The notes under the pieces are model-generated. The model did not search any database. It saw only the letters and a list, made by a program, of their open reading frames with translations, and was not told the DNA's origin. Positions 1,453 through 18,483 of a DNA stretch of 20,544 nucleotides are shown in pieces (the stretch's first letter is position 1; every line of letters starts with the position of its first letter). The DNA is from a virus (lineage: Duplodnaviria > Heunggongvirae > Uroviricota > Caudoviricetes), in IMG/VR virus record IMGVR_UViG_2529293044_000023; one strand, 5' to 3'. The position numbers were made by a program, and so were the translations under genes.

Positions 1453-1460
1453 TATTCCTC

Positions 1461-1988: not shown

Positions 1989-2164
1989 AAGCAACTCCAT
2001 CTGGCAGGTGAAAATCATGTTTATTTATATATTTCAATTAATTGTAAACTGGTCTAATGACAGGGAGAAAAAAATATTGTACAGGTAAAAAGAGAAATAA
2101 CTTTTAATTATCAATAAATTACCAAACATGCTGCCGCCGCCATGGAAATGCAAAAACTAGCCTT

Positions 2165-2190
2165 TTTCCGCGACGCTCCCGCCCCGTGGC
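2165..2190 (-). other. Putative cos site (cosN-like), about 180 bp upstream of the small terminase gene
   Basis: Minus strand reads GGGGCGGGAGCGTCGCGG, resembling the lambda cohesive end GGGCGGCGACCT followed by CGCGG as I remember it. Position relative to the Nu1-like gene matches lambda. An IHF-like match tATCAAtaaaTTA lies at 2110-2122 in the AT-rich stretch between it and the gene. Confidence 0.3.
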
Positions 2191-2451
2191 AGGCCACCCC
2201 ACCGGAAGGACCCGCCAAAATGAGAGTGATTATCACCATTGCTGATGAATAAATTGATGAAAATCATTGAAACGCCTTTCAGCAAGATAACGGCGACGGT
2301 CGTTGTTGAACTCCGTAGCTCTGCTACTAAGGTTAAAAGCATGGCCATCTTTTGCCACCGGCAAATCTTCAATGGATTTCCCCTGCCGGTTTTTTATTCC
2401 TCACATTATCGCAGCCCCTCAGTGAAGGGCTGCTGTAATGCCTGCTCTTAC

Positions 2452-2814
2452 TCAGTAACGACCGCGCCTTCCGGTAATTTCATACCGGCAAATACCGGAC
2501 AGCCCGGGGATCGTTATCTGCAGCTGGTTAGCCAGGGAGTTAATCTCAGCGACCAACACTGGCTTCGTATAGCGCCATGCCGCCAGCCCTTGTCCACAGA
2601 AGCTCGCCATATCTTTTTTCTGATCAAACTCATGACACTTCATATTGAGCTGCGCACTTAAGCTGTTGCGATGCTGAAGTTCTCCGGTGAAGTAGTCATC
2701 CAGGACTTTATAGGCTGCATATTTAAATCCGGGGTTTAGCCATGCTGCATAATCATAAGCAACAAACTTCCCGCCATATGTTCCACCGTGTACACCGCGC
2801 TCAGTAAAAACCAC
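2452..2814 (-). CDS. Hypothetical protein, possibly KilA-N-like
   Basis: 120-codon ORF between Rz and cos. Starts at GTG with no convincing RBS (GGAG is 17 nt upstream). Motif GTYGGKFVAYDYAAWLNPGFKYAAY recalls KilA-N/antirepressor N-domains, recognised from memory only. Confidence 0.4.
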   Translation of the reverse strand: MVFTERGVHGGTYGGKFVAYDYAAWLNPGFKYAAYKVLDDYFTGELQHRNSLSAQLNMKCHEFDQKKDMASFCGQGLAAWRYTKPVLVAEINSLANQLQITIPGLSGICRYEITGRRGRY

Positions 2815-2835
2815 AGATTCGTGTTTTTTCTCCAG

Positions 2836-3303
2836 CTACTTAATGCGCTGGGTGCGGATATATTCCTGCGCCCCTTCCAGTTGCTTCTGCATCGTCATCA
2901 ACCGTTCTCTGAGGGTGAAATAATCCCGTTCAGCGGTGTCTGCCAGTCGGGGGCTGGTTGCATTATCCATGCTGGTGGGTCCGGTGGCTTCACGCACGGC
3001 TGCGGAGCAACTGGCATTGACCCGCAGGCGCTTACGACCAGCGGCAACATCAGCGCGCAGAGTTTCATTTTCAGTTTTCGCATCGGCTAACTCCTTCGTG
3101 TATTTTGCATCGATCGCAGCAACATCACGCTGACGCTGCTGCATGTCAGCGATGGTGGCGGTCGCCTGCTTCAGCTCACTGACTTTTTTATCACGCTGTT
3201 CTTTGTAGGCGATGGCGTTATCACGGTAATGATTAACAGCCCATGACAGGCAGGCGATAATGCAGATAACCAGAGCGGAGATAATAACGGTTACCCTGCT
3301 CAT
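2836..3303 (-). CDS. Rz: Rz i-spanin (inner-membrane spanin subunit)
   Basis: [40 protein letters not shown] is near-identical in pattern to lambda Rz ([40 protein letters not shown]). ATG overlaps the endolysin stop as ATGA. The track's upstream start (3315) adds MGAT and is rejected. Confidence 0.88.
2898..3083 (-). CDS. Rz1: Rz1 o-spanin lipoprotein, embedded in the +1 frame of Rz
   Basis: [22 protein letters not shown]...[32 protein letters not shown] matches lambda Rz1 (MLKLKMMLCVMMLPLVVVGC...[29 protein letters not shown]). Lipobox Cys present; lies entirely within Rz. Confidence 0.85.
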
Positions 3304-3797
3304 TGTTGCCCCCACAAACAGACTTCACGCTCAATCTCGCGGCGAGTCATCAGCCCTTTCCATTGCTTACCGCCAGCGTATGTCCAGCGCCGTAGCTGAT
3401 CACATGCGCCTTTGATATCGCCCTGGTTTATTTTGCGAAGAAGCGTCGATGTTCTGAAATTGCCAGCGCCCACGTTGTAAACGAACGAGTAAAGAGCGCC
3501 GCGCGTTGTTTCCGGTATATCGACGTTGATGTACGGGTTAATTTGTCTGGCGACCGTGGCAAGGTCTTTATTCAGGAGGGCTTTGCATTCTGCTTCGGTA
3601 TACGTTTTACCGAGCATAATGTCTTTTCCGGTGTGCCCGTAACATACAGTCCATACACCAACGATATCTTTATATGGTATGTAGCTGACGCCTTCCAGAC
3701 CATCGTTACCACTTGGGCCAGTGATTAACACAGATGCTATAGCAATAGCCCCGCCACCAATAGCCGCAGCAACGGCTTTTCGTAATGATGGAGGCAT
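3300..3797 (-). CDS. R: SAR endolysin (phage-21 R-type, T4-lysozyme-like muramidase)
   Basis: N-terminal signal-anchor-release segment ([20 protein letters not shown]) followed by the catalytic E-x8-D-x5-T signature ([23 protein letters not shown]). RBS GAGGTG; start overlaps the holin stop (TAATG). Confidence 0.9.
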
Positions 3798-4012
3798 TAT
3801 TCACCTCTCGCAGCCTTACGCTTGTCTTCTCTGATTTTGAAGTACAGATTTGTCAGGTAAGTCAGAAAGCCCAGAACCAGACTTCCCAGCACACCAATCG
3901 CAGCCCACTGTGACGGACTGACCTGATCAAGCCACTGTAAAAACCAGTAGCCAGCACTACCAGCGGATGTTCCGTAGGCAATGCCAGTAGAGATTTTGTC
4001 CATTGATTTCAT
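3797..4012 (-). CDS. S: Class II holin / pinholin (S21-type) with dual-start motif
   Basis: 71 aa, [71 protein letters not shown]. Two TMDs and an MKSM dual start (antiholin from Met1, holin from Met4), matching phage 21 S as I recall it. GGAGG RBS upstream. Confidence 0.9.
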
Positions 4013-4336
4013 AGCAACGCCTCCGCCAGTAACGGATTGCGTAGTTCTTATATTGGGAAGGGGAAAAAAGAAGGCCGCAGCGTAACTATCACTAATAAAT
4101 TCAGGACAGCCAGTGGCTACGGCTCAGTTTGGGTTGTGGCGGCCGGAATCGAACCGGCTTCCATCGGTGCGCTGCCGATTGCAGTACGCGCGGCGGTCAG
4201 CTATATGACTAGTATTTTCACTATCGCCTATCTGCTAGCTCGCCATTGAGCTTCACCACAACGATAAGAGCACTGCGCGGCACCTTTCACCAATTCCGCG
4301 AGGTCTGCGGGTTCAATGCTCTTACCTGTTGTGCAG

Positions 4337-4373
4337 AAAAAAAACCACACGGCAGCGAGTTTAAGCTGTGTGG
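4337..4373 (-). terminator. Rho-independent terminator on the minus strand (tR'-like late-leader terminator)
   Basis: Hairpin CCACAC-loop-GTGTGG (4345-4373) followed on the minus strand by a U8 run (complement of A8 at 4337-4344). Downstream minus-strand sequence TTTTTTTTCTGCACAACAGGTAAGAGCATTGA matches what I recall just after lambda tR'. Confidence 0.55.
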
Positions 4374-4476
4374 CGAAGTTACCTCTCTTCACCAAGTATT
4401 CGGTAATAAAATAACTTGTGGTGTTCTCGTTTTTATGCCGATAAAATAAACGGTCCACTTTCAAATGGAGCGATTC

Positions 4477-5397
4477 ATGATTTTTCTCAGAACTGAAAAC
4501 GGCATCGAGAAACTTGAAAACTGGGAGGAAATTATATCCAGACCAAACTTTGTCACCACTATAGACAAAGGAGTTCAACAACTTGAGGAGATAATTGGTT
4601 ACTACAAATTTAAAGAAGAAATCCACTGTGGTCTAACTGGTTGCAACCAACCACATCAAATGGGTTATATTGTAAAAACATCTAGTGGCATTGAAACCAA
4701 CATCGGAAATAAATGTGGTAAAAACGAATTTGGTGTGGAATTTGGTGAAAACGTTCTTAGTTTCAATAAATTTATGCAACTCGAAACCAATCGGGAAATT
4801 ATTAGCACCGCAAAAAGTAAATGTGAAGCGTGGCAAAAAAATATTGAAACGATACGAAATATCAAACCCACAATAGATTATCTATCTTCTACCATCGAAA
4901 ATAGTAAAAATTCCAATTACTCCGGAAGACTTGGTGCTACAGAAATTCGTTTTTTGACCAAGAACCAGACAGGCCTTGTAACCCTTTCTGAAGTGGAAAC
5001 TGATAAGAATACCAAAACAATTCTGTTCGCAATGAATGAACACATGCGCGAGTCTGGAGAGGCAATAAGTGAATTCTACATAGGAAAAGTATCATTTAGT
5101 CATGTTCTTTTACCAGAAAACAATCTTCGTGATTTTTTTGTTGCGCTCAAAGAAGATCTAAAAAAAATTCAGTGTATTGATCTACAAACAGCCCCAAGCC
5201 CAGAAATTTCTAATGTTGCCAAAATTGCCAGTTCAATCGAAGAACGAATCAAGCGATTAAAAAAACTGAAACATGAAGCCAGTAAATTCCTAACTAAAAA
5301 AAATCTGCGTCCCATCGCAAACAAAATAAAATACTCATCGACAGCGGATGAACTTGAATTCCATAATTTCGAACGCTTTTTAAAAGGGCTGAAATGA
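4477..5397 (+). CDS. Hypothetical protein, ~306 aa, AT-rich cargo gene of unknown function
   Basis: Long clean ORF on the strand opposite all flanking phage genes. Composition is visibly AT-rich against the phage backbone. GGAG 6 nt before the ATG at 4477 (the track's 4465 start has no RBS). Cys cluster HCGLTGC...KCGKN near the N-terminus and a charged coiled-coil-like C-terminus (IEERIKRLKKLKHEASK). No family recognised. Confidence 0.7.
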   Translation: MIFLRTENGIEKLENWEEIISRPNFVTTIDKGVQQLEEIIGYYKFKEEIHCGLTGCNQPHQMGYIVKTSSGIETNIGNKCGKNEFGVEFGENVLSFNKFMQLETNREIISTAKSKCEAWQKNIETIRNIKPTIDYLSSTIENSKNSNYSGRLGATEIRFLTKNQTGLVTLSEVETDKNTKTILFAMNEHMRESGEAISEFYIGKVSFSHVLLPENNLRDFFVALKEDLKKIQCIDLQTAPSPEISNVAKIASSIEERIKRLKKLKHEASKFLTKKNLRPIANKIKYSSTADELEFHNFERFLKGLK

Positions 5398-5400
5398 TAA

Positions 5401-5418
5401 AAGCCCCGAAAGGGGCTT
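5401..5418. terminator. GC-rich hairpin with GAAA tetraloop between the convergent cargo gene and Q; probable bidirectional terminator
   Basis: AAGCCCC-GAAA-GGGGCTT perfect 7-bp stem immediately after the cargo-gene stop. Flanked by T-rich tracts on both strands, though neither is a strong U-run. Confidence 0.45.
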
Positions 5419-5511
5419 CTATCAAAATCATTTACGCATTATTCCGCATGCTTAAAAGAATACATGACAGATTCGGACAAAATCAAGTGCAATGTCGCAA
5501 AAACCCTAAGC

Positions 5512-6342
5512 TTAGTTCACATCATCACCAAAACTTGTCACATTCTGAAAAGCAATATCGGCCTTACGCTCTTCCTGGTGGCAAATGTCAACCAGAGAAT
5601 CAAGAAACGGCTTCCAATTACGCGTCCATGTCCTGACATGTAGCTCGGGTATCCGCTTCAGTACAACTTTATATACTGTGGTAGACGGTACCGTGGAAAA
5701 TCCATTTCCGCTGCAACGTTCGCAGATTTTAAACACTGGCACACCACGCTCGCTTGTGGCTTTGCGGTCCAGTACCTCTCCCTTTCCACCACAACGACAC
5801 CTGGCACTTATCACTCCCTTCCCTTTACATACATCGCAAACGACTGGTACAACTTCCGTTACCTCTGTCCATTTCTCCCAGTCTGACGGTCGAACAGCAC
5901 GGGAGCGACTGGCCCAATATGGTGCTTTACCCCATGGGTATGAAACCTTACGAATGACCTGCTTACGGGGTGTTAGTCCGGTACCACTGCAACTATGGCA
6001 TGTTACGCTGGTGTCCGCCGATCGGGAATACTCAGCAAAAGCAAACTGCGCCAGTACCAGCATACACCAGCCAAATTCACCACCAGCTGCTTTACGCACA
6101 TTCTTCGGTGCAATTTCCATCGCGTGACGCGCCAGCGCTTGGACTGCCATCTGCTCATCAGTCTTGCTGATACCGGCCTTCCCGAAGAAGGCCGCCAAGC
6201 CAAACCGTTCACGATTGCTGGTGGTACCAATAGCCGCCATAACATCGGTGCCTGTAAGACGTTCCGGAGAGGTTCCTTTCACATCGTCGCCGATATACAT
6301 TCCCTGAGGACTGAAGTATTTTAGCGATGCCTCAAGCTTCAT
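5512..6342 (-). CDS. Q: Late-gene antitermination protein Q (lambda-Q family) with expanded Cys-rich region
   Basis: N-terminus (LTGTDVMAAIG...FGLAAFFGK), centre (VLAQFAFAEYSRSA...CHSCSGTG) and C-terminus (KPFLDSLVDICHQEERKADIAFQNV) parallel lambda Q as I recall it. 276 aa against 207 in lambda; carries four Cys-pair motifs (CHSCSGTG, CDVCKGKG, CRCGGKG, CERCSGNG) where lambda Q has two. Correct position upstream of the lysis cassette. Confidence 0.8.
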   Translation of the reverse strand: MKLEASLKYFSPQGMYIGDDVKGTSPERLTGTDVMAAIGTTSNRERFGLAAFFGKAGISKTDEQMAVQALARHAMEIAPKNVRKAAGGEFGWCMLVLAQFAFAEYSRSADTSVTCHSCSGTGLTPRKQVIRKVSYPWGKAPYWASRSRAVRPSDWEKWTEVTEVVPVVCDVCKGKGVISARCRCGGKGEVLDRKATSERGVPVFKICERCSGNGFSTVPSTTVYKVVLKRIPELHVRTWTRNWKPFLDSLVDICHQEERKADIAFQNVTSFGDDVN

Positions 6343-7199
6343 TATTCACACTCCCCAACCAGATTAAGAATAACCGCCGCGCCATTGTCTTTCATATATT
6401 CGCCCTTTCCGCTTGCCAAAAACCAACGACACACCTCCACTGCTTCAGCCCGTGTCACCGGTTTGATGGTCATCAGCAATTTTTCAAGGTAGCGCTCGCG
6501 GTCATATACCGATTCGTGATGCTCAGAGTAACCATACTCATCGCCCTGTTCTTTAGACGCAGTGTGGCGAACACTGTAGAGCCAGTCCCAGTAAACAAAC
6601 TCACGAACTACGTCTGACAATGTATGAGGCTCTGGCAGTACATCACGATAGCCATCAACATATGCACGACGCTGATCATCAATTTCATTCATACGGATGC
6701 CATCAATTCTGCCCGCTGTCTTCTCGGCTGCAGTCCAGCCCCAGAGATGATCGTCGATAAATTTCTGGGAAGACTTGATCACTCGCTCGGCTTCCACATC
6801 TTCGAGTGCTGCTTCATAGCTACCAAACGTAGCCCTGACTGATGTTGCTTTTTTGATATTCTCCCGGGCGATCCTGATTGCCTGTGCCGGGTTATCCATG
6901 CCGATGGTACCGAAAGCAATCTGGAAAGGATCACCACCATTCGCCAGCAGATAACGCGAATAGCGTTCCTGGGCCTCTTTTGGGGAAATTTTAATTTTCA
7001 CCAGCGCAGCCTCAGCAGCATCCAGATGTGCGGGTTCGTTCAGACGGATAACCTCCAGCACCCAAAGATAAGCATCAGTCTGCTTATGCCCGGTGATTCT
7101 CCGTTGCTCTGGCAGGGGCTTGATGTTTGCGAGGGCGGAGCTGTACGCTGCCGTCGGGATGGTGAATAGTGCTTTATGTTCGTTGTTATCAGTACGCAT
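6342..7199 (-). CDS. Hypothetical protein (285 aa) between the primase and Q, in the nin-region position
   Basis: Long ORF whose start overlaps the primase stop and whose stop overlaps the Q start, typical of a tightly packed operon. No domain recognised. Confidence 0.6.
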   Translation of the reverse strand: MRTDNNEHKALFTIPTAAYSSALANIKPLPEQRRITGHKQTDAYLWVLEVIRLNEPAHLDAAEAALVKIKISPKEAQERYSRYLLANGGDPFQIAFGTIGMDNPAQAIRIARENIKKATSVRATFGSYEAALEDVEAERVIKSSQKFIDDHLWGWTAAEKTAGRIDGIRMNEIDDQRRAYVDGYRDVLPEPHTLSDVVREFVYWDWLYSVRHTASKEQGDEYGYSEHHESVYDRERYLEKLLMTIKPVTRAEAVEVCRWFLASGKGEYMKDNGAAVILNLVGECE

Positions 7200-8167
7200 T
7201 ACGCAACCGCCTTTTTCTTATGGAAAACCAGCTCTCGAACCTGATCACCGTTCATGAGCATATTGTTGAAATCATCGTGATCCGGCCAGTACACGCTCAC
7301 GCGCTGCAGGTCATTCTTTGCCATCAGATTGGCATGAGCACATTCGCAAGCCGCAGCCAGCCCGGTGGCGCTGTTCTCGTCACGGTCGGCAAAAATAATC
7401 AGGTGCAGAACACCAGCTGGTACGCGGAACTTTTTCATAAAGCCGCTGTTAATGGTTGCCCAGGTGTTCACGTTATAAATCTGGTGCGCTGACAGCGCTG
7501 TTTCGATGCCTTCGGCGATACCCAGAGTGCTAGCAACAGGAAACATGCGGATAGCTACAGAACGAGCGTGATCCAAATAGTTATCTTCCTGCAGGGATTT
7601 GAGGCGCTTTGCACTGCTACCGATATCTGCTTTTTTATCACCATCAAGCAGAGTCTGGTGCAGATAGCACAACTCCCCTTTATCGTCCGTAGCAAGTGAA
7701 TAAAGAGACTGGAACACACTCCCGTTGTGTCTCTGCCTGGCATTGAACCGGATCGCCTCAGCAGGAAGACTGAATATTCCACGAGAATTAAGATACGCTG
7801 CGCCGGATGTACCACGCAGTGCCTCCAGTTTTGAAAACTTGCTCAATACCCGTTTGCGTAAGCTGGTGGCGCTGCTGGTTACCGGGATTTTAACCCGTTG
7901 GTAATCATTACCGCTCAGGCGGTCTATTTCGGTACAAATCTCGTTAAATGGCTTCGCCTGTGTCAGGGTGACAAGTTTCATACCATCGCCACTACCACAT
8001 ACACAGATCCACGTTCCTGCACCGTCGCGGTCATCAATTCGGAACTTGCCACGTGCACCGCATACCGGGCATTCACCCTTGAAGTGATTTTTTCCTGTTA
8101 TCGGCGGCAAGCCGAAGTGCTCTAATATTTCAGGCCAGCGGCCTTTCGCTGCAGCTGCTGTTTTCAT
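7199..8167 (-). CDS. DNA primase (zinc-binding N-terminus plus TOPRIM domain)
   Basis: Cys-rich motif GECPVCGARGKFRIDDRDGAGTWICVCG, then TOPRIM-like acidic motifs IAEGIETALS and IIFADRDENSAG. Adjacent to and co-oriented with the helicase. Confidence 0.75.
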   Translation of the reverse strand: MKTAAAAKGRWPEILEHFGLPPITGKNHFKGECPVCGARGKFRIDDRDGAGTWICVCGSGDGMKLVTLTQAKPFNEICTEIDRLSGNDYQRVKIPVTSSATSLRKRVLSKFSKLEALRGTSGAAYLNSRGIFSLPAEAIRFNARQRHNGSVFQSLYSLATDDKGELCYLHQTLLDGDKKADIGSSAKRLKSLQEDNYLDHARSVAIRMFPVASTLGIAEGIETALSAHQIYNVNTWATINSGFMKKFRVPAGVLHLIIFADRDENSATGLAAACECAHANLMAKNDLQRVSVYWPDHDDFNNMLMNGDQVRELVFHKKKAVA

Positions 8168-8168
8168 C

Positions 8169-9827
8169 TTACTGACTCAAACTGTTTATATTTTTCTGGA
8201 GTTGTTGCTTTGCTTGCATGATGCGCCAAGCCTCAGTGCCTATTGGCATCTCGCTTCGCTCACCTCGTTCCTGAGACAGAGGAATCGTTGCCTGCAATTT
8301 TTCTATAGTTCTCTGCGTCCGCTGACGGCCTTTGGCAAACCGAATCAGCTTGTGTTTGATGTAGTTACTTACTTCTGGGCTTATTTCCATCGGGAAACTG
8401 CTCAACCCATCAGGCCATTCACCGAATTTCTCCCTGAAAGTGTGAGCACACCATCCATCACTGACTGGACGCCCCAGCGAAGCACGCTGGCGCTGATAAA
8501 ATTTGATCTGACTCCACCAGGACTGTTTCTCTGCCTTCGTCGACTGATGCTGATTTTTACCCAGCTTATTAAGTTTGCGGCTAGTGTCAGTATCAACGTC
8601 TTCACCTCGCAGCGGCTTGTGTCCACATTTCGGGCAAACATAGACGCCAGCTGGCTTCATGTAGTGGCATTGAGGGCATTCATGTGGCAGTTTTTCGGCC
8701 CGTTCCTCAACTGCGCGGCGCGCGCTTTCCTCCATGCCATCAGACTTACCGGGAAGATCGTCGTACTCGATTGAATCCGGATAACCCAAACGGTGCACGG
8801 TGCCGCTGTGATCGAAGATAAGGCAGGACGCTTTACCCGGTGCGGTGCGCAGCCCACGCCCGAGTGCCTGCAACCAGCGAATTTCGCTTTTTGTTGGCCT
8901 GGCGTAGATGATGCAACGAACGTCACTATCGAATCCGGCTACCAGAACGCCCACACTAACGATGATTTTCGTTGCACCGGTTTCAAAGCGGTGAATGATG
9001 GTCTGGCGCTCATCTACCGGAGTGTCGGCGGTCATTACCTCAGCGTTAACACCCGCCAAGTTAAACTGGATTGTCAGATAATTGGCGTGAGCTACGTTGA
9101 CGCAGAAAGCGATGGTAGGTAGATCCCGACCATTCTCCAGCCAGTTCTGTACGATGTCGCCCACCAGCGTAGAGCCGCACATGATTTCAGCCAGCTGTGT
9201 TTCGTTGTAATCGCGGCCGTACTCAAGCGAAGATGTGGTTTTAACACCTTTCAGATCCGGCTTAGTTGGCGCGTAAAATTCGTATTTACTCAGATCGCCA
9301 CGCTGGATTAACTCGCCGATGGTGGTCGGCTTAATCAGTCGGTCATAGTATTTGCCCAGGAACGGAGAAAACGGAGTACCCGACAGGCCAATCACCTTTA
9401 CGCCTTTGCCGCGCAGACGTTCGATATCCTTCAGGATGCGTTTTTTACGCAGGTGCGCTTCGTCGATAATCAGCAGATCGATATTTTCAGGAAAAACACG
9501 ACGAATAAGCGTGTCAGCGCTGGCAATCTGAATTTTCCGGTCCGGATCGTAGTTCGGGTGATCCGCCCAGATATAACCGATTTCATCTCCAGGTAAACCA
9601 TACTGCACGAACCGATTAGCCGTCTGACCAATCAGGATGGTGTACGGAACACAGAACAGAACACGCATACCACGGCTGACAAAACCAGCAACTATGAAGG
9701 CTGCCAGACCCGTTTTACCGCTACCTGTTGGCGAGTAAACCATGAAGGTGTCGTTTGCCTTCCAGTCACGGCGCAACATGTTTAGCGCTCGCTCCTGTGC
9801 AAAATTCGGCGTGATTGTCAGCTGCAT
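8169..9827 (-). CDS. Superfamily-2 DEAH-box DNA helicase (phage replication helicase) with C-terminal zinc ribbon
   Basis: Walker A SPTGSGKTG, DEAH box LLIIDEAH, motif III GLSGTP, arginine finger region ALGRGLR. CPQCHYMK...CPKCGHKP forms a zinc-ribbon motif. Confidence 0.85.
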   Translation of the reverse strand: MQLTITPNFAQERALNMLRRDWKANDTFMVYSPTGSGKTGLAAFIVAGFVSRGMRVLFCVPYTILIGQTANRFVQYGLPGDEIGYIWADHPNYDPDRKIQIASADTLIRRVFPENIDLLIIDEAHLRKKRILKDIERLRGKGVKVIGLSGTPFSPFLGKYYDRLIKPTTIGELIQRGDLSKYEFYAPTKPDLKGVKTTSSLEYGRDYNETQLAEIMCGSTLVGDIVQNWLENGRDLPTIAFCVNVAHANYLTIQFNLAGVNAEVMTADTPVDERQTIIHRFETGATKIIVSVGVLVAGFDSDVRCIIYARPTKSEIRWLQALGRGLRTAPGKASCLIFDHSGTVHRLGYPDSIEYDDLPGKSDGMEESARRAVEERAEKLPHECPQCHYMKPAGVYVCPKCGHKPLRGEDVDTDTSRKLNKLGKNQHQSTKAEKQSWWSQIKFYQRQRASLGRPVSDGWCAHTFREKFGEWPDGLSSFPMEISPEVSNYIKHKLIRFAKGRQRTQRTIEKLQATIPLSQERGERSEMPIGTEAWRIMQAKQQLQKNINSLSQ

Positions 9828-9938
9828 TGTGCTGTCCCCGCAGTGATGAGATAATAATTTTGTGATGTGGTTTTCATGGATTCCTCCTCACATGGCTGGT
9901 GGTCTCCCCAAAGGCTGCCAGCCCCTTTCCGAATCAAC

Positions 9939-10307
9939 TCACTTAAATTTCGTCGCACGAATAACGTCAATTCCGTTCTCGCTATATCGAAGAGGGTGCT
10001 TACCATCCCTGAGCAGGACAAAGCCTGACATCCCCTCAGGTAGCTGAGCCAGCTTCATCAACGAACGGTTGCGGGGAGACTTCTTATCGACCTCAATGGC
10101 ACACTGCTGGCCGTCTGATGATGTAACCAGGCAATCAATAAACCCTTTACGACCACCGCTAATGCTGATGCTGAAATTGCGTTGCAGATGGTATCCCTGA
10201 GACTTGATTTTTTTCTGCATCACATAATCGAAAACGACTTTGTCATCGGAGCGAATGAATTGCTCTTCCAGGAGAGTGATTAAATTTTGCTTCAGGTCTT
10301 CACTCAT
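9939..10307 (-). CDS. Hypothetical protein (122 aa), possible PD-(D/E)xK-like nuclease motif
   Basis: ATG-initiated ORF upstream of the helicase. Motif GFIDCLV...AIEVDKK is loosely compatible with a D...(D/E)xK nuclease signature. Weak RBS. Confidence 0.45.
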   Translation of the reverse strand: MSEDLKQNLITLLEEQFIRSDDKVVFDYVMQKKIKSQGYHLQRNFSISISGGRKGFIDCLVTSSDGQQCAIEVDKKSPRNRSLMKLAQLPEGMSGFVLLRDGKHPLRYSENGIDVIRATKFK

Positions 10308-10556
10308 ACTTTTTTATCCATCTTGTACTAGCTTTCTGGTACAGCCGTTTTTTCAGGGGTATCCCCCTTTAGATCGAGATCTACCTAACCTATGTACCCG
10401 TCTGTTGGAAAAGCCTGTTCCAGTGCTTCGCACTAACACACGGGCACTCCTCCCCCTCCCCTCCTCTCATTGAATTTTGTGCGTACTCTTTAACTAGTAC
10501 AAAAATGCAATGAGATTTGGGATTCAGCCACCGGACACCTTTAAGCCCGGTACCAA

Positions 10557-12818
<2,262 letters not shown>

Positions 12819-12821
12819 TCA

Positions 12822-13094
12822 TCATTCGTTTTTCATAACTGCCGCATTTGTGGCTGTGTGACTTCTACGTAACAAATCAGGGATTGCATCTTCAGGATGG
12901 GGATAAAGATCTGGTCTTAACCCATGAGGAGTAACTTTCCATTCCACAACTTCACATACACGCAAGACGAAACGAGCAGGAATTGTTCTTTTTGAAAACC
13001 ATTGGTTCACAGCTTGCGGCGTAACGCCTAGATTTCGCGCTATGGCATTTTGTGCAATTAGCTCACGAAGTGCGTCGTAATCATTTCCTTTCAT
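12822..13094 (-). CDS. Cro-like HTH transcriptional regulator (YdaS/Cro family)
   Basis: 90 aa with an HTH (NAIARNLGVTPQAVNQWFSKRTIP). Transcribed divergently from the cI-like repressor, 134 bp away, which is the Cro position. Confidence 0.7.
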   Translation of the reverse strand: MKGNDYDALRELIAQNAIARNLGVTPQAVNQWFSKRTIPARFVLRVCEVVEWKVTPHGLRPDLYPHPEDAIPDLLRRSHTATNAAVMKNE

Positions 13095-13228
13095 CGCAAC
13101 CCACCAATCTAAACTTTATAAATTCAAGATTACATCAAGTTTAAATTAACATGCAAGTCCACAAAAGATCGAATACACTAAAATCAAGTAAAAATTTATC
13201 GAAACCAAGTAACCAGCAAGGATTAACA
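13095..13228. promoter_or_regulatory. Divergent promoter/operator region between cro-like and cI-like genes (OR-like)
   Basis: AT-rich 134-bp intergenic region with repeated ATCAAGT-type motifs (13134-13140, 13183-13189, variant 13204-13210). Minus-strand TTATAA/TATAAA -10 candidate ~20 bp upstream of the cro start. Exact promoters not resolved. Confidence 0.45.
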
Positions 13229-13918
13229 ATGAAAAACTTAAAGAGCACTGAAAATCGAATTACAAAGCTGCTACAGGAGAAAGGCTGGAGCCAAGCAGAG
13301 CTGGCCCGAAAATTAGGTGTCAGCGCACAGTCCGTACAGTACTGGACAACAGGAAAAACATTTCCAAGGGGAAACCGGCTTGCCCAGTTATCCGAAATAA
13401 GTGGTTATCCGCAATCGTGGTTTTTAGGAGAAATCACGTCACGGCAGTTCTCTTCAAAGGAAAAACATCAAGCAAGAACTGACAGTGTGGTCTTTAACGT
13501 GCTCGATGTTGAGTTTAGTTGCGGCGATGGAACACATGTCCGTGGGGACTTTATCGATGTAGTTCGCTCAATCGAGCTTGATCCTGAATATGCCCGTCGC
13601 CTTGTTGGCAATAGAGCATTTCAAAACATAGAGATTGGTAACGCAAGAGGAGATAGTATGGCTCCAACAATAGCCCCAGGAGATCTTCTTTTTCTCGATA
13701 AAACAGTGAATTACTTTGATGGTGATGGCATTTATGCTTTTTGCTTTGATGGTGAATGCTACGTCAAAAGATTACAAAAGATAGGAAGTAAAATCATGGT
13801 GTTATCTGATAACCCAAATTACCAATCCTGGAGCATTGAAAAAGATGCTCTTGAGCTGCTTTATATCCAATCGAAGGTAATCTCATCTGTTCCATTCAAT
13901 ATAAATAGATTTGGTTAA
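13229..13918 (+). CDS. cI-like prophage repressor (N-terminal HTH_XRE, C-terminal LexA/S24 autopeptidase domain)
   Basis: HTH (WSQAELARKLGVSAQSVQYWTTGKTFP). S24 catalytic Ser in GDSMAPTI and Lys in ECYVKRL. AAGGA RBS 6 nt before the ATG at 13229; the track's 13151 start adds a low-complexity extension without an RBS and is rejected. Confidence 0.85.
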   Translation: MKNLKSTENRITKLLQEKGWSQAELARKLGVSAQSVQYWTTGKTFPRGNRLAQLSEISGYPQSWFLGEITSRQFSSKEKHQARTDSVVFNVLDVEFSCGDGTHVRGDFIDVVRSIELDPEYARRLVGNRAFQNIEIGNARGDSMAPTIAPGDLLFLDKTVNYFDGDGIYAFCFDGECYVKRLQKIGSKIMVLSDNPNYQSWSIEKDALELLYIQSKVISSVPFNINRFG

Positions 13919-13939
13919 TTATTGATTATTAAAGAAAAA

Positions 13940-14060
13940 TTTACAAATCAAGTAAAAGAGACGCAGAAATCAATTTTTTCTTGACAACTCCATCAATCAA
14001 GATCTAACATCACACCATCAATTTTGACTTGATTTATTGTTAATTTTAAATTGATGGTGA
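13940..14060 (+). promoter_or_regulatory. pL/OL-like early promoter-operator region driving the rightward early operon
   Basis: Two sigma70-like candidates: TTGACA (13981-13986) with TAACAT at 18-bp spacing, and TTGACT (14025-14030) with TAAATT (14047-14052) at 16-bp spacing. Operator-like motifs AAATCAAGTAAAA (13945-13957), ATCAAGA (13996-14002) and ACTTGAT (14027-14033) overlap them. Confidence 0.45.
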
Positions 14061-14064
14061 TTCA

Positions 14065-14493
14065 ATGAAAGATCTGACAACCGCTGAGATATCGAACTTA
14101 AACCACTTCGAAAAAGAATCCTTTGCATTAAATATTGCAAATCTGGTAGGTGCTGCTCGTACTTTCCATTTAATTGATGGTGATCGCTCTAAAGAATTGG
14201 GGTTTGAAGTCATGGAGTTTGTTCATGAATACGCCCTGTCTGCTACTTATCCATTACATAATCACATAATCAACAAACAACCAAATAAAATCCGCACCCA
14301 ACGCGAAGCCTGCGGCTTAACAACCGCCGAACTCGCCAGGCTGCTCGATCTCGATGAAGAAATTATCATCCAGTGGGAAAGCGGAGAGTACGAACCAACC
14401 ATCAGCATGCTTATCCCTCTGGCTAATGTTCTTGGCTGTGATCCAATGTTGTTATTGACTGATGCTTATAAACAAAATCAGGAGGAAGCATAA
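14065..14493 (+). CDS. HTH_XRE-domain protein (C-terminal Cro/C1-type HTH), first gene of the early operon
   Basis: 142 aa. C-terminal half IRTQREACGLTTAELARLLDLDEEIIIQWESGEYEPTISMLIPLANVLGCDP is a typical XRE HTH. N-terminal ~70 aa unrecognised. GGTGA RBS. Confidence 0.65.
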   Translation: MKDLTTAEISNLNHFEKESFALNIANLVGAARTFHLIDGDRSKELGFEVMEFVHEYALSATYPLHNHIINKQPNKIRTQREACGLTTAELARLLDLDEEIIIQWESGEYEPTISMLIPLANVLGCDPMLLLTDAYKQNQEEA

Positions 14494-14494
14494 G

Positions 14495-14686
14495 ATGAAA
14501 ATGTTCAAAGGCCTTACCAACGAACCGGAGACAGCTTTTCATCACATTGCCGTACTGCTTGAAGCGGGGTTAATCATTTCGGCTTCCGGTGATGAAGAAT
14601 GTGATGAACTTTCGGATGATATCTTTTTACTGGCACAACAATACGCCAAAAGCGCATGCGATGCATTTAAGGAGCAAAGAACATGA
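14495..14686 (+). CDS. Hypothetical small acidic protein (63 aa)
   Basis: ATG preceded by AGGAGG. The track start 14462 is an upstream alternative without an RBS. Confidence 0.5.
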   Translation: MKMFKGLTNEPETAFHHIAVLLEAGLIISASGDEECDELSDDIFLLAQQYAKSACDAFKEQRT

Positions 14687-14874
14687 TAACTCCATTAAAT
14701 ATTCTTGAGGAAGTGGCGGCACAAATAAAAGAGAATACATCAATGCTTGAATTTATATTTAAGAATTCGCCCGACCAAGGAGAGACAGACGATTATTTAT
14801 GCTGTCTCATTCGCTCCATGAATAAGACCTGTGAAATGGCTTACGAGTATATAGAAACACTACGCAACGAATAA
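14683..14874 (+). CDS. Hypothetical protein (63 aa)
   Basis: AAGGAG RBS; start overlaps the previous stop as ATGA, suggesting translational coupling. Confidence 0.5.
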   Translation: MITPLNILEEVAAQIKENTSMLEFIFKNSPDQGETDDYLCCLIRSMNKTCEMAYEYIETLRNE

Positions 14875-14956
14875 AGAACACTCAGTAAAAAATCACACAT
14901 AAAAACATGACGGCCTCTGGTCGTGGATTTCCACAACCAGAAAATAATGGTGATGC

Positions 14957-15055
14957 ATGAAAAATAGAAACGCTTATAAAACCGCATTATTAATGGCTAA
15001 TGCAGGATACTGGTCAGTTGCAATACTGTTTCTCAGAAAAGCATACGGGAAATAA
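14957..15055 (+). CDS. Possible small hydrophobic peptide (32 aa)
   Basis: MKNRNAYKTALLMANAGYWSVAILFLRKAYGK has one predicted TM-like segment. Weak RBS. Below the ORF-track size cutoff. Confidence 0.25.
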   Translation: MKNRNAYKTALLMANAGYWSVAILFLRKAYGK

Positions 15056-15058
15056 CAA

Positions 15059-15418
15059 ATGGCATGTACAACCATTTATAAAGATCGTCGCCGCATGGTA
15101 ACAGCGGCACTCCGGCGGATGCAACGTAAAACAGGTAGTAATCTGCTCGTCGTTGACCTCCCGGACGGAGAAATAACAACGATAGAAATAACTGAACAGT
15201 TCATGAACCAGTTGTTATTACGATTTGAGGGTCTTACCCGTGTTGAATATGGACGGACGGAAGGAGAAGCAACAATCCGTACCGCATACCAGAATGCCAT
15301 CGGTATTAATCAACACACGGAATATCTCACTGAATCAGGGAAACTGATAGTGGACGGCCTTTTAAAAGAGGTTGTTGACTACGTAAAAGAGAAATATATC
15401 AGTGGAGGAATTAACTGA
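15059..15418 (+). CDS. Hypothetical protein (119 aa)
   Basis: ATG-initiated ORF in the early operon; its stop overlaps the next start. Confidence 0.55.
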   Translation: MACTTIYKDRRRMVTAALRRMQRKTGSNLLVVDLPDGEITTIEITEQFMNQLLLRFEGLTRVEYGRTEGEATIRTAYQNAIGINQHTEYLTESGKLIVDGLLKEVVDYVKEKYISGGIN

Positions 15419-15627
15419 TGTCTGATTTATCCCCTCTTATACACGAAAAAGTACAGATCATTATGACGATTGAAAATGGTCAGGTAATAAATACCCGTAA
15501 AGTTCACAATAACGAGATGATTGCCAGCATGGATACCTTCTTGTGGATAGCAAAGAAAGCGGGATATCAGGTAATCGCTCCTGATCTGGAGGAAATCGGT
15601 GACATTAACAGCAATACGAATTCCTGA
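15418..15627 (+). CDS. Hypothetical protein (69 aa)
   Basis: GGAGG RBS; start overlaps the upstream stop (TGATG). Confidence 0.55.
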   Translation: MSDLSPLIHEKVQIIMTIENGQVINTRKVHNNEMIASMDTFLWIAKKAGYQVIAPDLEEIGDINSNTNS

Positions 15628-15850
15628 GTGGGTGCACCTGCAGGCGGTCCGTGTTCTCCGCCAGTTCAGAGCCAGACGAATTCATCCCTGTCGTATGCAC
15701 GGCTCCGGAAACCTGAGTCTGAGGGTTAATCGCCGCTGGCGGCTGCTGTCCCGAGACGGCGGCCAGAACTGGGAAGTAATGAGCCATGAACGATACAGCA
15801 AAGTTAAGGACCGGAAATGAACAATAAACCTTCAAACCAAAAGGAGAGTA

Positions 15851-16432
15851 TTGATGATTAATTCAACCATTACCCCTGAACCTACATTAACAGGCATCCG
15901 TTTTGGTAATCGAATTATTGGTTATTCAACTGCGGTTCGCCAGATCGACAACGGTAACTATGACAAACGAATTCCGGACGGGCTCGATCTGATAGCTTGC
16001 ATTATGGAAGGGATTGAAAGCGGCTGGTTTATGCCGTGTATTGAAAAACAAATCATCCTATGGCGCTGGCTTGTTGTCGCCGTGTTCATTGCTGAGGAGC
16101 AGGAGAAGAACGGGACTGTCGATGTTCAGAATGACAAGGGCGGCGTAGATACAGCCGTTGTATACACAGGAAAACCCGGTTCAATCAGCATTTATCCATG
16201 GTCTGAGCGCTTCGCGCTCGCTAACCATATCGAGGCGGGCGCAATTGAAAAATACGGGCCTGACGTTGGCCAGCAGATGGCGCTGCGTATGTATCAGGAC
16301 ATGGTTGTAACTGACGAGAAATGCGGATTCAGGCTGTCAGCGATGGGCCGGGAGGGACTCAACATACTACATGACAGCTTCATTGAACTGATTCAGAAAG
16401 ACGGTATGCCAGACATGCCGGTTATGCACTGA
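15851..16432 (+). CDS. Hypothetical protein (193 aa)
   Basis: AAGGAGAG RBS 7 nt upstream of the ATG. No domain recognised. Confidence 0.6.
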   Translation: MMINSTITPEPTLTGIRFGNRIIGYSTAVRQIDNGNYDKRIPDGLDLIACIMEGIESGWFMPCIEKQIILWRWLVVAVFIAEEQEKNGTVDVQNDKGGVDTAVVYTGKPGSISIYPWSERFALANHIEAGAIEKYGPDVGQQMALRMYQDMVVTDEKCGFRLSAMGREGLNILHDSFIELIQKDGMPDMPVMH

Positions 16433-16443
16433 GGTGGACGAAA

Positions 16444-17190
16444 ATGAACATAGTAACGATCAATAACAAACAGCTTCCGGCAGTCGAATATCGCGGTCAG
16501 CGTGTTGTGACGCTGGCGATGATTGATGAAGTCCACCAGCGACCGGAAGGAACAGCGCGTGCAGCATTCAACCGAAACCGTGAGCATTTCATCAGCGGTG
16601 TGGATTATGCCGAATTAGGTGCGGACGTAATACGTACGGACCTCCCGGAAGGAACATTCTCTAAATTTGCACCATCAGGGATTGTACTTTTTGAATCAGG
16701 TTACCTGATGTTGACGAAGCCATTCAATGACGCCCTTGCCTGGCAGGTTCAGCGCGAACTGGTTAACAGCTACTTCCGCACTCGCACACCGCTAACGGAA
16801 ATCGAGATGATCGCTGCGATAGCCGCCGACGCTGTTCGTCAACAGAAGCGCCTGAATCATGTGGAAGAACAGCTCGAAACAGTCACAGAAGCGGTGGAAA
16901 CCATCAAACGCGGAAATATGCGCGCCGGATATGTCGGTTATCGCCAGGTGGTCGCCAAAAGCGGAATGACTGATGCTAAGTGCCGCAATCTGGTCAATGC
17001 CTACAGCATCCCAACCGATACGCACGAATTTATGACACCAGATGGTCTTCTTTCGCGCCGGGCTATCGTGGAGCTGGAGCCATTCATGAAAGCATTTCAT
17101 CAGATGATGTCAGAGGCAGAGCCACGTGGTACCCGCTGGTATCACCCGAAGATGGGGCTGTTTCAGGTGATTGGTTGGGAGGGTAAATAA
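16444..17190 (+). CDS. Putative phage regulatory / antirepressor-like protein (KilA-N/ORF6N-like N-terminal domain)
   Basis: N-terminus LPAVEYRGQRVVTLAMIDEVHQRPEGTARAAFNRNREHFISGVDYAEL resembles ORF6N/KilA-N domains, judged from memory only. 248 aa. Confidence 0.5.
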   Translation: MNIVTINNKQLPAVEYRGQRVVTLAMIDEVHQRPEGTARAAFNRNREHFISGVDYAELGADVIRTDLPEGTFSKFAPSGIVLFESGYLMLTKPFNDALAWQVQRELVNSYFRTRTPLTEIEMIAAIAADAVRQQKRLNHVEEQLETVTEAVETIKRGNMRAGYVGYRQVVAKSGMTDAKCRNLVNAYSIPTDTHEFMTPDGLLSRRAIVELEPFMKAFHQMMSEAEPRGTRWYHPKMGLFQVIGWEGK

Positions 17191-17528
17191 TGTCACTCAT
17201 TACACAAAATTTCCGCCTCAATGCGCTGGCAAATCAGTATGCGGCGGCACTGCACAACCACATATCCGCCACCAGCGGTGGTCATTTCCTGATTAATGTC
17301 AATGGGCAATCCATACGAGTAAACATCATCGGTGGGGTTAAAGGCATCAGGGACTTAATCGATGGTTATGCTCTGAAGGCTATCAAAGAAAATTACCCCC
17401 AATGGGAAGCCGTTGGTATTCAACTGTTAAGCAAATGCGTTCGTGGAAACGAGCTGACGCAAAGCGGCAAAGAAATCTGGCAGAGCATGGTCAACGACAT
17501 GAGCGATACCGTTATGGGGAACATGTAA
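17190..17528 (+). CDS. Hypothetical protein (112 aa)
   Basis: Start overlaps the upstream stop (TAATG); ORF in operon context. Confidence 0.55.
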   Translation: MSLITQNFRLNALANQYAAALHNHISATSGGHFLINVNGQSIRVNIIGGVKGIRDLIDGYALKAIKENYPQWEAVGIQLLSKCVRGNELTQSGKEIWQSMVNDMSDTVMGNM

Positions 17529-17750
17529 ATGAAAATCCAATACCAGGACTATGGCGCCGTAGCGAACATCGTGATCACCAGTTCCTGCCTGACATTGCAA
17601 AAGCATAACCGCGTTGTTGATGCGGTGCTGTTTAATGTACAGGGGATCTCTGAAAACCGCAGCGGCTTTTTCTGGGTTAAGTCATCGTTGTCAGGAAAAA
17701 CACGCGACATCCTGCGCGCCTACAAAATCGTACAGCGGGAGGCAAAGTGA
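17529..17750 (+). CDS. Hypothetical protein (73 aa)
   Basis: Starts one nt after the upstream stop; ORF in operon context. Confidence 0.5.
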   Translation: MKIQYQDYGAVANIVITSSCLTLQKHNRVVDAVLFNVQGISENRSGFFWVKSSLSGKTRDILRAYKIVQREAK

Positions 17751-17845
17751 TGAAGTCATTCCTCCTGTCCATACTGTTTAGTCTGCTGCTGGCGTCCGTC
17801 GTTTTCGGTACGCTGATTGAATATAAATTTTTAATGAATTACTGA
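17750..17845 (+). CDS. Possible small membrane peptide (31 aa)
   Basis: MKSFLLSILFSLLLASVVFGTLIEYKFLMNY is a single hydrophobic helix. ATG overlaps the upstream stop (GTGATGA). Below the ORF-track cutoff. Confidence 0.3.
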   Translation: MKSFLLSILFSLLLASVVFGTLIEYKFLMNY

Positions 17846-17853
17846 GGTGCGGG

Positions 17854-18009
17854 GTGGGCAAGATCAAAAACCCAGTTGTACTTATCCATAAGCGAGAAAA
17901 TAGTGACTCCTACGCCGTTACAATCACCTGCGGTAGCCAGAACTATCACGACGCCGTTCTGATGGCGTCGATGGAACTGGATATGAGTGACGATGATGTC
18001 GATACCTAG
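17854..18009 (+). CDS. Possible small protein (51 aa, GTG start)
   Basis: GAGG 6 nt upstream of GTG. Product VGKIKNPVVLIHKRENSDSYAVTITCGSQNYHDAVLMASMELDMSDDDVDT has protein-like composition. Fills an otherwise empty 180-bp gap. Confidence 0.3.
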   Translation: MGKIKNPVVLIHKRENSDSYAVTITCGSQNYHDAVLMASMELDMSDDDVDT

Positions 18010-18027
18010 AGTAAAACAGGCTATTAC

Positions 18028-18483
18028 ATGGCTGAAGAAATCGAGCGACTGAAACAAGCACTTTCCGCTGCGGAAAATAATCTGATTGATTCCGAATGCC
18101 TCGTAGCTGAATTAAGCAAAGCAAAGGATCACGCATATGGGCTGGTCGACACATACGACTGGCAACGTCAGCGTCTCCACGCAGCCGCTGAGAAAGTCCT
18201 CAAATGGTGCAGACAAGAAGCTGAACACCGTACCGGCGATCCAGAGAAAGCAGAAAACTATGCGTGCGTTAAAGAACTACGCGACGCATTAACTTTTTGC
18301 AAAAGTTCTGAAAGCAGCAAGAAGAAAGGCCTGACTATCACCCTGCCCGATATCACATCAAAGGCATTCTGGAGCGGTACCGGAAAAAACGCAAAATTCC
18401 ATCCGGCAACCTATAAACGCTGGGTGAAAGAAGCTATTAAACGGGATTGTGTTATTGCCGGGATCGGCGTGGAGGTGAAATGA
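18028..18483 (+). CDS. Hypothetical early protein (151 aa)
   Basis: ATG-initiated ORF with a coiled-coil-like N-terminus. No family recognised. Confidence 0.55.
   Translation: MAEEIERLKQALSAAENNLIDSECLVAELSKAKDHAYGLVDTYDWQRQRLHAAAEKVLKWCRQEAEHRTGDPEKAENYACVKELRDALTFCKSSESSKKKGLTITLPDITSKAFWSGTGKNAKFHPATYKRWVKEAIKRDCVIAGIGVEVK

Follow-up and report, generated by a model that had tools for sequence, protein, structure and literature searches.

The immunity region of phage lambda runs in the order cro, right operator (OR), cI and left operator with the early-left promoter (OL-PL); its OR2 site abuts the -35 element of the maintenance promoter (PRM), OR3 covers PRM, and the operators are 23-24 bp apart. 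In phage 434, the operators are 14 bp long and follow the pattern ACAA-N6-TTGT. The lambdoid Shiga toxin (Stx)-type prophages 933W and BAA2326 have cI-type repressors and three OR sites, and 933W is described with only two OL sites (PMC5977221; PMC3317979). The present study concerns the corresponding region of a lambdoid prophage contained in a 20,544-bp stretch of viral DNA (IMG/VR record IMGVR_UViG_2529293044_000023; the whole stretch is hereafter called the window). In this region, 17-bp pseudo-dyad sites of the form ATCAAk-N5-mTTGAy lie on both sides of a cI repressor gene, and these sites are likely to act as OR and OL in a lysis/lysogeny switch of the lambda type. A first-pass annotation of the same DNA had proposed an identical 13-mer, present on both sides of cI, as a candidate operator.

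The locus is laid out as cro (12822-13094, - strand), OR, cI (13229-13918, + strand), OL/PL and the early-left operon (+ strand). The gene order is that of lambda in reversed orientation, and the early operon is co-directional with cI, heading to the integrase gene. Because of this lambda-like layout, the two intergenic regions that flank cI are the positional equivalents of OR and OL/PL; the cro-cI region is 134 bp long with a GC content of 0.31, and the region past cI is 146 bp long with a GC content of 0.25. The conserved unit in both regions, as seen in an alignment with phage PhiR49_2, Stx2a phages and E. coli chromosomal relatives, is the 17-bp pseudo-dyad. When the window was searched with ATCAAKNNNNNMTTGAT, all three matches with at most one mismatch fell in the two regions (13183-13199, 13969-13985 and 14017-14033). 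At up to two mismatches, 6 of the 10 matches did so, i.e., within 280 of 20,544 bp, the three extra ones being at 13103-13119, 13134-13150 and 14039-14055. The six candidate operator sites, to which no strand is assigned, are as follows:

13103-13119: OR1, the cro-proximal site, ACCAATCTAAACTTTAT, with two mismatches to ATCAAk-N5-mTTGAT
13134-13150: OR2, ATCAAGTTTAAATTAAC, which includes ATCAAGT at 13134-13140
13183-13199: OR3, ATCAAGTAAAAATTTAT, with one mismatch, reading ATCAAG-TAAAA-ATTTAT
13969-13985: OL2, ATCAATTTTTTCTTGAC, with one mismatch; its right half forms the putative PL -35 element TTGACA (13981-13986)
14017-14033: OL1, ATCAATTTTGACTTGAT, with no mismatch, at about +1 of the putative PL; it contains ACTTGAT and most of an inverted 12/13 copy of the 13-mer
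14039-14055: an extra site in the PL leader, GTTAATTTTAAATTGAT, with two mismatches, 22 bp from OL1

AT-richness, which is marked in both regions, was controlled for by shuffling these regions themselves 2000 times with dinucleotides preserved. These local shuffles held 0.20 17-bp sites against the 6 observed, a number reached in none of the 2000. Without any prior, ATCAA came out as the 5-mer with the strongest enrichment in the two regions over the remaining window (10 observed, 0.89 expected), and the count of ATCAA/TTGAT words (10 versus 2.7 expected) was reached in a single one of the 2000 local shuffles. In 27 other AT-rich 280-bp segments of the prophage, at most two ATCAA words and no 17-bp sites were found. 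The first-pass annotation had named as its own caveat a similar frequency of the motif throughout the AT-rich parts of the prophage; given the low counts in local shuffles and the paucity of ATCAA in the other AT-rich segments, this caveat falls away, and the prophage-wide search finds the motif concentrated in the two cI-flanking regions.

Conservation was assessed in a comparison set of 90 related loci from E. coli, Klebsiella and Pseudocitrobacter, with site statistics taken over 91 loci; the scan of viral contigs contributed 80 loci with 63 distinct OR/OL combinations, and the scan of genome contigs added two useful lineages. The identity of cI among these relatives ranges from 77 to 100%, so they are not a set of recent, undiverged copies. 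In PhiR49_2, the cI protein is 88% identical and the DNA ~81% identical to the window, and the OR block 13111-13199 is nearly invariant, with few differences at regular places; between lineages with a cI DNA identity of 78-81%, the same block is ~94% conserved. Over the 91 loci, the spacing is 29-31 bp for OR1-OR2, 49-50 bp for OR2-OR3 and 46-48 bp for OL2-OL1. In the set of 43 distinct site sequences, no variation is seen in columns 4, 5 and 13, and one exception each in columns 3, 14 and 16; substitutions within a given site position fall in the spacer (columns 7-11), the bordering columns 6 and 12, and the outer columns 1, 15 and 17. By analogy with 434, such a pattern is as expected for a dimeric helix-turn-helix (HTH) repressor that contacts the outer bases.

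The individual sites follow this pattern. At the OR1 position, relatives carry ATCAAGCTATAATTGAT (L011, Pseudocitrobacter), ATCAAGTTAAACTTTAT (L009) or ATAAAGTATAACTTGAT (L089-95). The OR2 half-sites, ATCAAG and ATTAAC, are kept in all 91 loci bar one, in which the left half is ATCAAT, and variation is otherwise confined to the spacer; those of OR3 are kept in all lineages around a spacer that reads TAAAA, TAAAG, TTAAT, GTAAG or CAAAA. A site at the OL2 position is present in 91 of 91 loci, although a 1-bp spacer deletion in L036 raises its mismatches to five, and in the Klebsiella and Pseudocitrobacter relatives OL2 is ATCAAGTTTAACTTGAC, again over the PL -35 element. OL1 matches perfectly in 89 of 91 loci and is the perfect palindrome ATCAAGTTTAACTTGAT in L009, L011 and L012. 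The relatives with this palindrome, Klebsiella phage ST16-OXA48phi5.3 (cI 77% identical) and two enterobacterial genomes (cI 80%), had not been used to define the pattern; their OL1 sites, together with ATCAAGCTATAATTGAT at OR1 of L011, are the strongest confirmation of the 17-bp unit. The extra site at 14039-14055 occurs in the window and R49 lineages and is absent from the other loci compared. In a heteroimmune relative, Klebsiella phage 1 LV-2017 (cI 41% identical), 3.1 kb were searched and held no 17-bp site.

Three genes border the two regions:

12822-13094, - strand: cro-like gene, divergent from cI, encoding a 90-aa HTH protein; Pfam matches YdaS_toxin (5.9e-13), P22_Cro (6.9e-5) and HTH_3
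13229-13918, + strand: cI repressor, 229 aa; Pfam matches HTH_3 (7e-9) and Peptidase_S24 (8e-17)
14065-14493, + strand: opening gene of the PL operon, encoding a 142-aa protein with HTH_3 as its C-terminal domain; named 'DicA' in phage phi467

The start codon of cI is the ATG at 13229, not the start at 13151 given by the open reading frame (ORF) finder. The protein carries the motif GDS143M and K180 (catalytic Ser143/Lys180) together with a Cys98-Gly99 cleavage site, and its N-terminal domain (residues 9-67) aligns to the DNA-binding domain of the 434 repressor (PDB 2r63, E 7.7e-4; phmmer against PDB). Similarity to lambda cI was not detected in the searches performed here. Homologues of the cro-like gene are annotated as Cro in PhiR49_2 and Stx2a phages, and its Shine-Dalgarno sequence GGTGGG directly adjoins OR1.

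The promoter elements assigned to the two regions, of which those in OR were proposed from position and conservation, are listed below (PR, the promoter that would serve cro):

13981-13986 and 14005-14010, + strand: putative PL, -35 TTGACA and -10 TAACAT with an 18-nt spacer and a consensus score of 10/12, the best promoter-like element of the area
13151-13156, no strand assigned: candidate -35 shared by PRM (+ strand) and PR (- strand), ATGCAA/TTGCAT, abutting OR2
13174-13179, + strand: candidate PRM -10, TACACT; over the 91 loci, TACACT, TAAAAT or TAAACT stands 17 nt past ATGCAA
13129-13134, - strand: candidate PR -10, a weak assignment, TGTAAT; the 16-nt spacer is filled by OR2

All 91 loci have PL in the form TTGACn/17-18/TAnnnT, with OL1 starting 6-7 bp past the -10 element. 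The ATGCAA hexamer is found in 90 of 91 loci, and an exact 17-nt gap always separates it from a TAmAmT that lies 3-4 bp before OR3. At the place of the PR -10, for which the pattern T(G/A)TAnT was taken, relatives have TATTAT, TATATT, TATAGA or TGTATT. A second PL-like promoter, TTGACT (14024)/17/TAAATT, was considered and set aside, as it is not conserved in other lineages.

In the proposed switch, a cI dimer would presumably bind the 17-bp pseudo-palindrome through its 434-like HTH, and the Cro-like protein may bind the same sites, by analogy with lambda. OR2 fills the spacer of the candidate PR and abuts the candidate PRM -35; occupied by repressor, it would silence cro and could activate cI, as the same geometry permits for lambda OR2. 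The PR transcript is predicted to start just before OR1, which would thus lie within the first bases of the cro transcript, and the position of OR3 over the PRM start would make negative autoregulation possible. On the other side of cI, OL2 supplies the PL -35 and OL1 sits at the PL start point just past the -10, so that bound repressor would bracket PL.

Compared with lambda, the locus is alike in gene order, in a cI protein that combines an HTH with an S24 self-cleavage domain, in three 17-bp pseudo-dyad OR sites, and in OL sites that overlap PL. One OR site abuts the candidate maintenance-promoter -35, as OR2 does in lambda, and another covers that promoter, as OR3 does. All the sequence-level hallmarks of a lambda-type immunity region are thus found here, i.e., the repressor domains, a divergent Cro-type gene, several OR dyads, and OL over the early-left promoter. 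However, the operator ATCAAk-N5-mTTGAy differs from the TATCACCGC-type half-sites of lambda; the conserved OL core consists of two sites bracketing the promoter; the candidate PR and PRM share one -35 hexamer; and the first gene behind PL is not N-like. Measured centre to centre, neighbouring sites in the window are 31 and 49 bp apart in OR and 48 bp apart in OL, against 23-24 bp in lambda. A spacing of ~23-24 bp between adjacent operators, which allows pairwise cooperative binding and is a property of lambda, 434 and P22 rather than part of a strict definition, is not seen among the conserved sites; the locus stands apart from these three phages both by its operator sequence and by how widely its conserved sites are spaced. 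With 434 it shares the alignment of the cI N-terminal domain and short, conserved outer half-sites around a non-conserved A/T-rich centre, but the half-site is ATCAA(G/T) instead of ACAA, the site measures 17 bp instead of 14 bp, and helix 3 of the repressor reads SAQSVQY where 434 has TQQSIEQ.

The candidate operators are also unrelated to those of 933W and BAA2326 (e.g., BAA2326 OR1 ATAACTGTGCGTAATG and OR2 ATATCTGCGGTGTTGAC; PMC5977221), for which electrophoretic mobility shift, footprint and transcription data exist. Among the named, long-known lambdoid phages of the phage collection searched, the closest repressors are HK022 cI and the c2 repressor of the P22-like phage ST160, with ~36% amino-acid identity over most of their length. 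At this identity, both are almost certainly heteroimmune; the cI relative with 41% identity already lacks the motif. A full-text literature search for four operator strings returned no matching paper.

Several points weigh against the proposed switch, which as a whole relies on sequence and on analogy with described phages. OR1 is degenerate in E. coli lineages, with 2-5 mismatches. The consensus promoter scan gave nothing at or above 9/12 in OR, and PR and PRM are both weak by consensus; for these reasons, the two OR promoter assignments stand evenly balanced between right and wrong. A strong consensus PR, in particular, was not found in the scan, and TTGCAT/16/TGTAAT was the only, weak assignment. 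In a Klebsiella relative, the recognition helix is STQTVVY instead of SAQSVQY while the half-site is unchanged, so there is no protein-DNA covariation to back cI as the reader of the sites, and because cI and Cro both co-occur with the sites in every lineage, the comparison cannot separate the two as binders. Finally, as the spacings differ from the 23-24 bp of lambda, pairwise cooperativity in the lambda manner cannot simply be assumed.

The only sites at 22-24 bp from one another are lineage-specific extra sites or half-sites. In the window lineage, the starts 13947, 13969, 13993, 14017 and 14039 are spaced in this way. An improbable, though conceivable, variant is that the conserved architecture, with three OR sites 30 and 49 bp apart, two OL sites 47 bp apart around PL and one -35 hexamer common to PR and PRM, makes a switch that works unlike that of lambda. 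Nearest-neighbour cooperativity might then be absent, with repression by promoter bracketing or by OR-OL looping over ~0.8 kb; in the window lineage, the half-sites at 22-24 bp would make OL a five-site cooperative array. If true, such an array would change the induction threshold of the Stx2f/Stx2a phage family. The sequence was also inspected for an additional OR site in the OR2-OR3 interval and for partners 22 bp to either side of the OR sites, and only the lineage-specific half-site ACCAAGTAA at 13204 came to light.

The 13-mer singled out by the first-pass annotation is real as a repeat. Exact copies of AAATCAAGTAAAA were found by reading the sequence and by pattern search at 13181-13193 and 13945-13957, both on the + strand, and their placement relative to the genes had been given correctly, with copy 1 at 36 bp upstream of the cI ATG and copy 2 at 27 bp beyond the cI stop codon, upstream of the promoter-like TTGACA/18/TAACAT. 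An inverted copy with 12 of 13 positions identical (AAATCAAGTCAAA) lies on the - strand at 14023-14035. At up to two mismatches, the only other match in 20.5 kb is at 5480, giving a total of 4 versus 0.80 expected in whole-window shuffles. Of the shorter variants reported with it, ATCAAGT at 13134-13140 and ACTTGAT at 14027-14033 are exact, but 13996-14002 reads ATCAAGA. The second copy is described as follows:

13945-13957, + strand: second 13-mer copy, an orphan left half-site ATCAAG plus the spacer TAAAA, upstream of OL2 with 22 bp between the two centres

That the 13-mer is itself the operator, with both exact copies functional and of equal rank, e.g., as an OR3/OL3-like pair for long-range looping, is unlikely. 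A shared exact word of at least 13 letters arose in only 8 of the 2000 local shuffles (mean longest word 8.5), and copy 2, by its distance from OL2 and its place upstream of the PL -35, occupies what in the lambda layout is the OL3 position. An ATCAAG half-site close upstream of OL2 exists in the Stx2a lineage as well, but at 10 bp, not 22 bp, from OL2. Copy 2 is followed by GAGACG, which does not match the right half mTTGAy. The R49, Klebsiella, Pseudocitrobacter and L089-L097 lineages lack copy 2, and its core is mutated in L023 (CCCAAG) and L025 (CTCAAG) despite a 100% identical cI and an unchanged adjacent OL2. The spacer part of the 13-mer, moreover, varies freely in OR3 between lineages and even within the window lineage (ATCAAGCAAAAGTTTAT in L023). 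The 13-mer was rejected as the operator unit once it had been aligned with PhiR49_2 and Stx2a phages and sister contigs had been surveyed: it consists of two flanking A's, the left half-site and five spacer bases of the 17-bp pseudo-dyad.

In most related lineages, PhiR49_2 included, the place of copy 2 is taken by an intrinsic-terminator-like hairpin directly after cI (GGGCTTTGCCCG followed by a T run), whereas the window (13919-13965) and the Stx2a lineages have AT-rich sequence instead. A search of 12700-14300 for terminator-like sites gave none, for which reason cI transcripts may read through into the PL operon. In Klebsiella-type lineages, the left half of OL2 is itself ATCAAG, preceded by an A-run. 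The mutated cores in sister loci, the hairpin in most lineages and the different spacing in the Stx2a lineage mark copy 2 as an unconstrained orphan half-site; most likely it is a relic, possibly of an OL2 rearrangement, and at best a weak auxiliary site.

What the first-pass annotation had proposed, an OR/OL operator set, therefore holds in outline: the region is of the lambda type, and an ATCAAG-centred motif occurs on both sides of cI and is conserved in 90 of 90 relatives. The unit and the status of copy 2 have to be revised, as only copy 1, which past its two A's is the left two-thirds of OR3, belongs to a conserved operator. Its operator list was also incomplete, having missed the perfect match at 14017-14033, which is the best operator, the site over the PL -35 (13969-13985) and the cro-proximal site (13103-13119).

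Less likely still than an operator role of the 13-mer, though it could add to a role in DNA, is that CACCATCAATTT (14013-14024) and AAATTGATGGTG (14048-14059) form an RNA hairpin in the PL leader that hides the ribosome-binding site of the first gene. The predicted 12-bp stem has an energy of -17.5 kcal/mol (z = -3.7 versus shuffles), and its 3' arm covers GGUG five bases before the ATG. Yet the position of the PL -10 at 14005-14010 would put the transcript start near 14017, which drops the first four stem bases; the change of the 3' arm in the R49 lineage is uncompensated, a base is inserted in the Stx2a lineage, and L009 and L011 lack the pattern. The arms, moreover, are no more than the outer halves of operators that lie side by side. 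CACCATCAATTT was also considered as a separate repeat family for another regulator and was rejected, since its copies are accounted for by the outer half of OL1, that of the extra site and a CACC flank. This CACC flank adjoins OR1 and OL1 in relatives as well.

An ATCAA core is common to the consensus of integration host factor (IHF), and several sites are preceded by A and have A/T-rich flanks, as would suit IHF sites (WATCAANNNNTTR) that bend DNA around the early promoters. This explanation is very improbable, because the TTR of WATCAANNNNTTR is lacking at the required offset, where AAA (13183), AAA (13134), TTC (13969), GAC (14017) and AAG (13947) are found, two window sites are preceded by C and not by W, and what is conserved is a 17-mer of two-fold symmetry whose second half, TTGA, is invariant, a feature that IHF sites lack. 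Equally improbable is that the 142-aa HTH protein, and not cI, uses the sites beyond cI to autoregulate the PL operon. The gene starts 10 bp past the last site, it encodes an HTH_3 domain, and the repeat AATTGATGGTG recurs within it at 14172-14182; however, the same 17-bp motif is present in OR, 0.8 kb away, and L009 and L011 keep OL2 and OL1 perfectly with unrelated first genes (no BLASTP alignment in L009, an unrelated-looking 130-aa ORF in L011). Least credible of all is a functionless by-product of AT-rich, low-complexity intergenic DNA: both regions are indeed rich in A/T and ATCAAGT alone is only mildly over-represented window-wide (7 versus 3.1 expected, with 7 reached in 3 of 100 shuffles), but neither the local shuffles nor the other AT-rich segments reproduce the 17-bp sites, and positions and half-site letters are kept in 91 loci from three genera while the surroundings diverge.

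Operators of a lambda-type switch, the favoured reading of the sites, are a known and expected kind of element, and the set is new as an experimentally undescribed example. The 'novel immunity specificity' claimed by the first-pass annotation is accurate in that sense, within the literature searched, and not otherwise, since the same immunity region is widespread: it was found in the Stx2f phage phi467, in many Stx2a/Stx2d phages, in 13 named phages and, at a coverage of at least 80%, in 136 of 5426 complete E. coli genomes (~2.5%). The cI/operator set would define an immunity group that comprises phi467, many Stx2a/Stx2d phages of non-O157 Shiga toxin-producing E. coli, and this share of complete E. 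coli genomes. The tightness of repressor-operator binding sets the inducibility of a prophage and, in toxin-carrying relatives, also the ease of Shiga toxin release; in 933W and BAA2326, operator affinities and cooperativity explain the 'hair-trigger' induction (PMC5977221). The operator map makes equivalent experiments designable for a third, widespread Stx-phage immunity type, and ATCAAk-N5-mTTGAy at fixed offsets from cI may serve as a simple signature for assigning prophages to this group.

Some further features of the genes at the locus were observed. An operator-like 17-mer, ATCAAGCAAGAACTGAC, with two mismatches lies at 13467-13483 within the linker region of cI; a similar site, ATCAAGCCAAATCTGAT, is found at the same cI codon position in an 83%-identical lineage (L091-L093) and not in the R49 or Stx2a lineages. 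The first PL-operon gene (14065-14493) is replaced by unrelated genes in L009 and L011, where the operators are kept. Its HTH-encoding 3' half (14290-14465) is almost identical across lineages and matches phiP27 (90%) and Stx2a phages (93%), and its 5' half is variable in sequence and length; the arrangement resembles a recombination joint or a module under strong constraint. Inside it, at 14169-14184, is a third copy of the operator-flank repeat, TTTAATTGATGGTGAT, 15/16 identical to 14046-14061; this third copy lacks a left half-site to match and is not kept in PhiR49_2.

As for the prophage as a whole, the window is 99.5% identical to the Stx2f phage phi467 (LN997803), the reference Stx2f prophage in PMC11489412, across 4338-10787 and 12741-18966. 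The intervening 10788-12740 is the insertion sequence IS100 (IS21 family), with IstA at 10873-11895, IstB at 11892-12674 and a 6-bp target duplication; relative to phi467, it interrupts the 97-aa gene immediately behind cro after ~22 codons. Because IS100 parts cro and PR from the replication and Q genes, the prophage is probably not inducible to lytic growth. Collinearity with phi467 ends at 4338, and lysis genes, namely a lysozyme gene (3300-3797, - strand) and Rz (2836-3315, - strand), lie to the left. No stx genes were seen in 1-4337 of the window, which appears to be a toxin-free relative of phi467 or to have its stx region outside the stretch. Between the Q antiterminator gene (5512-6342, - strand) and the lysis genes are two antisense ORFs without a Pfam match: an AT-rich ORF (36% GC) of 310 aa at 4465-5397 (+ strand) and an overlapping one of 80 aa at 5394-5636 (+ strand). 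In phi467, the 310-aa ORF is annotated as two shorter ORFs.

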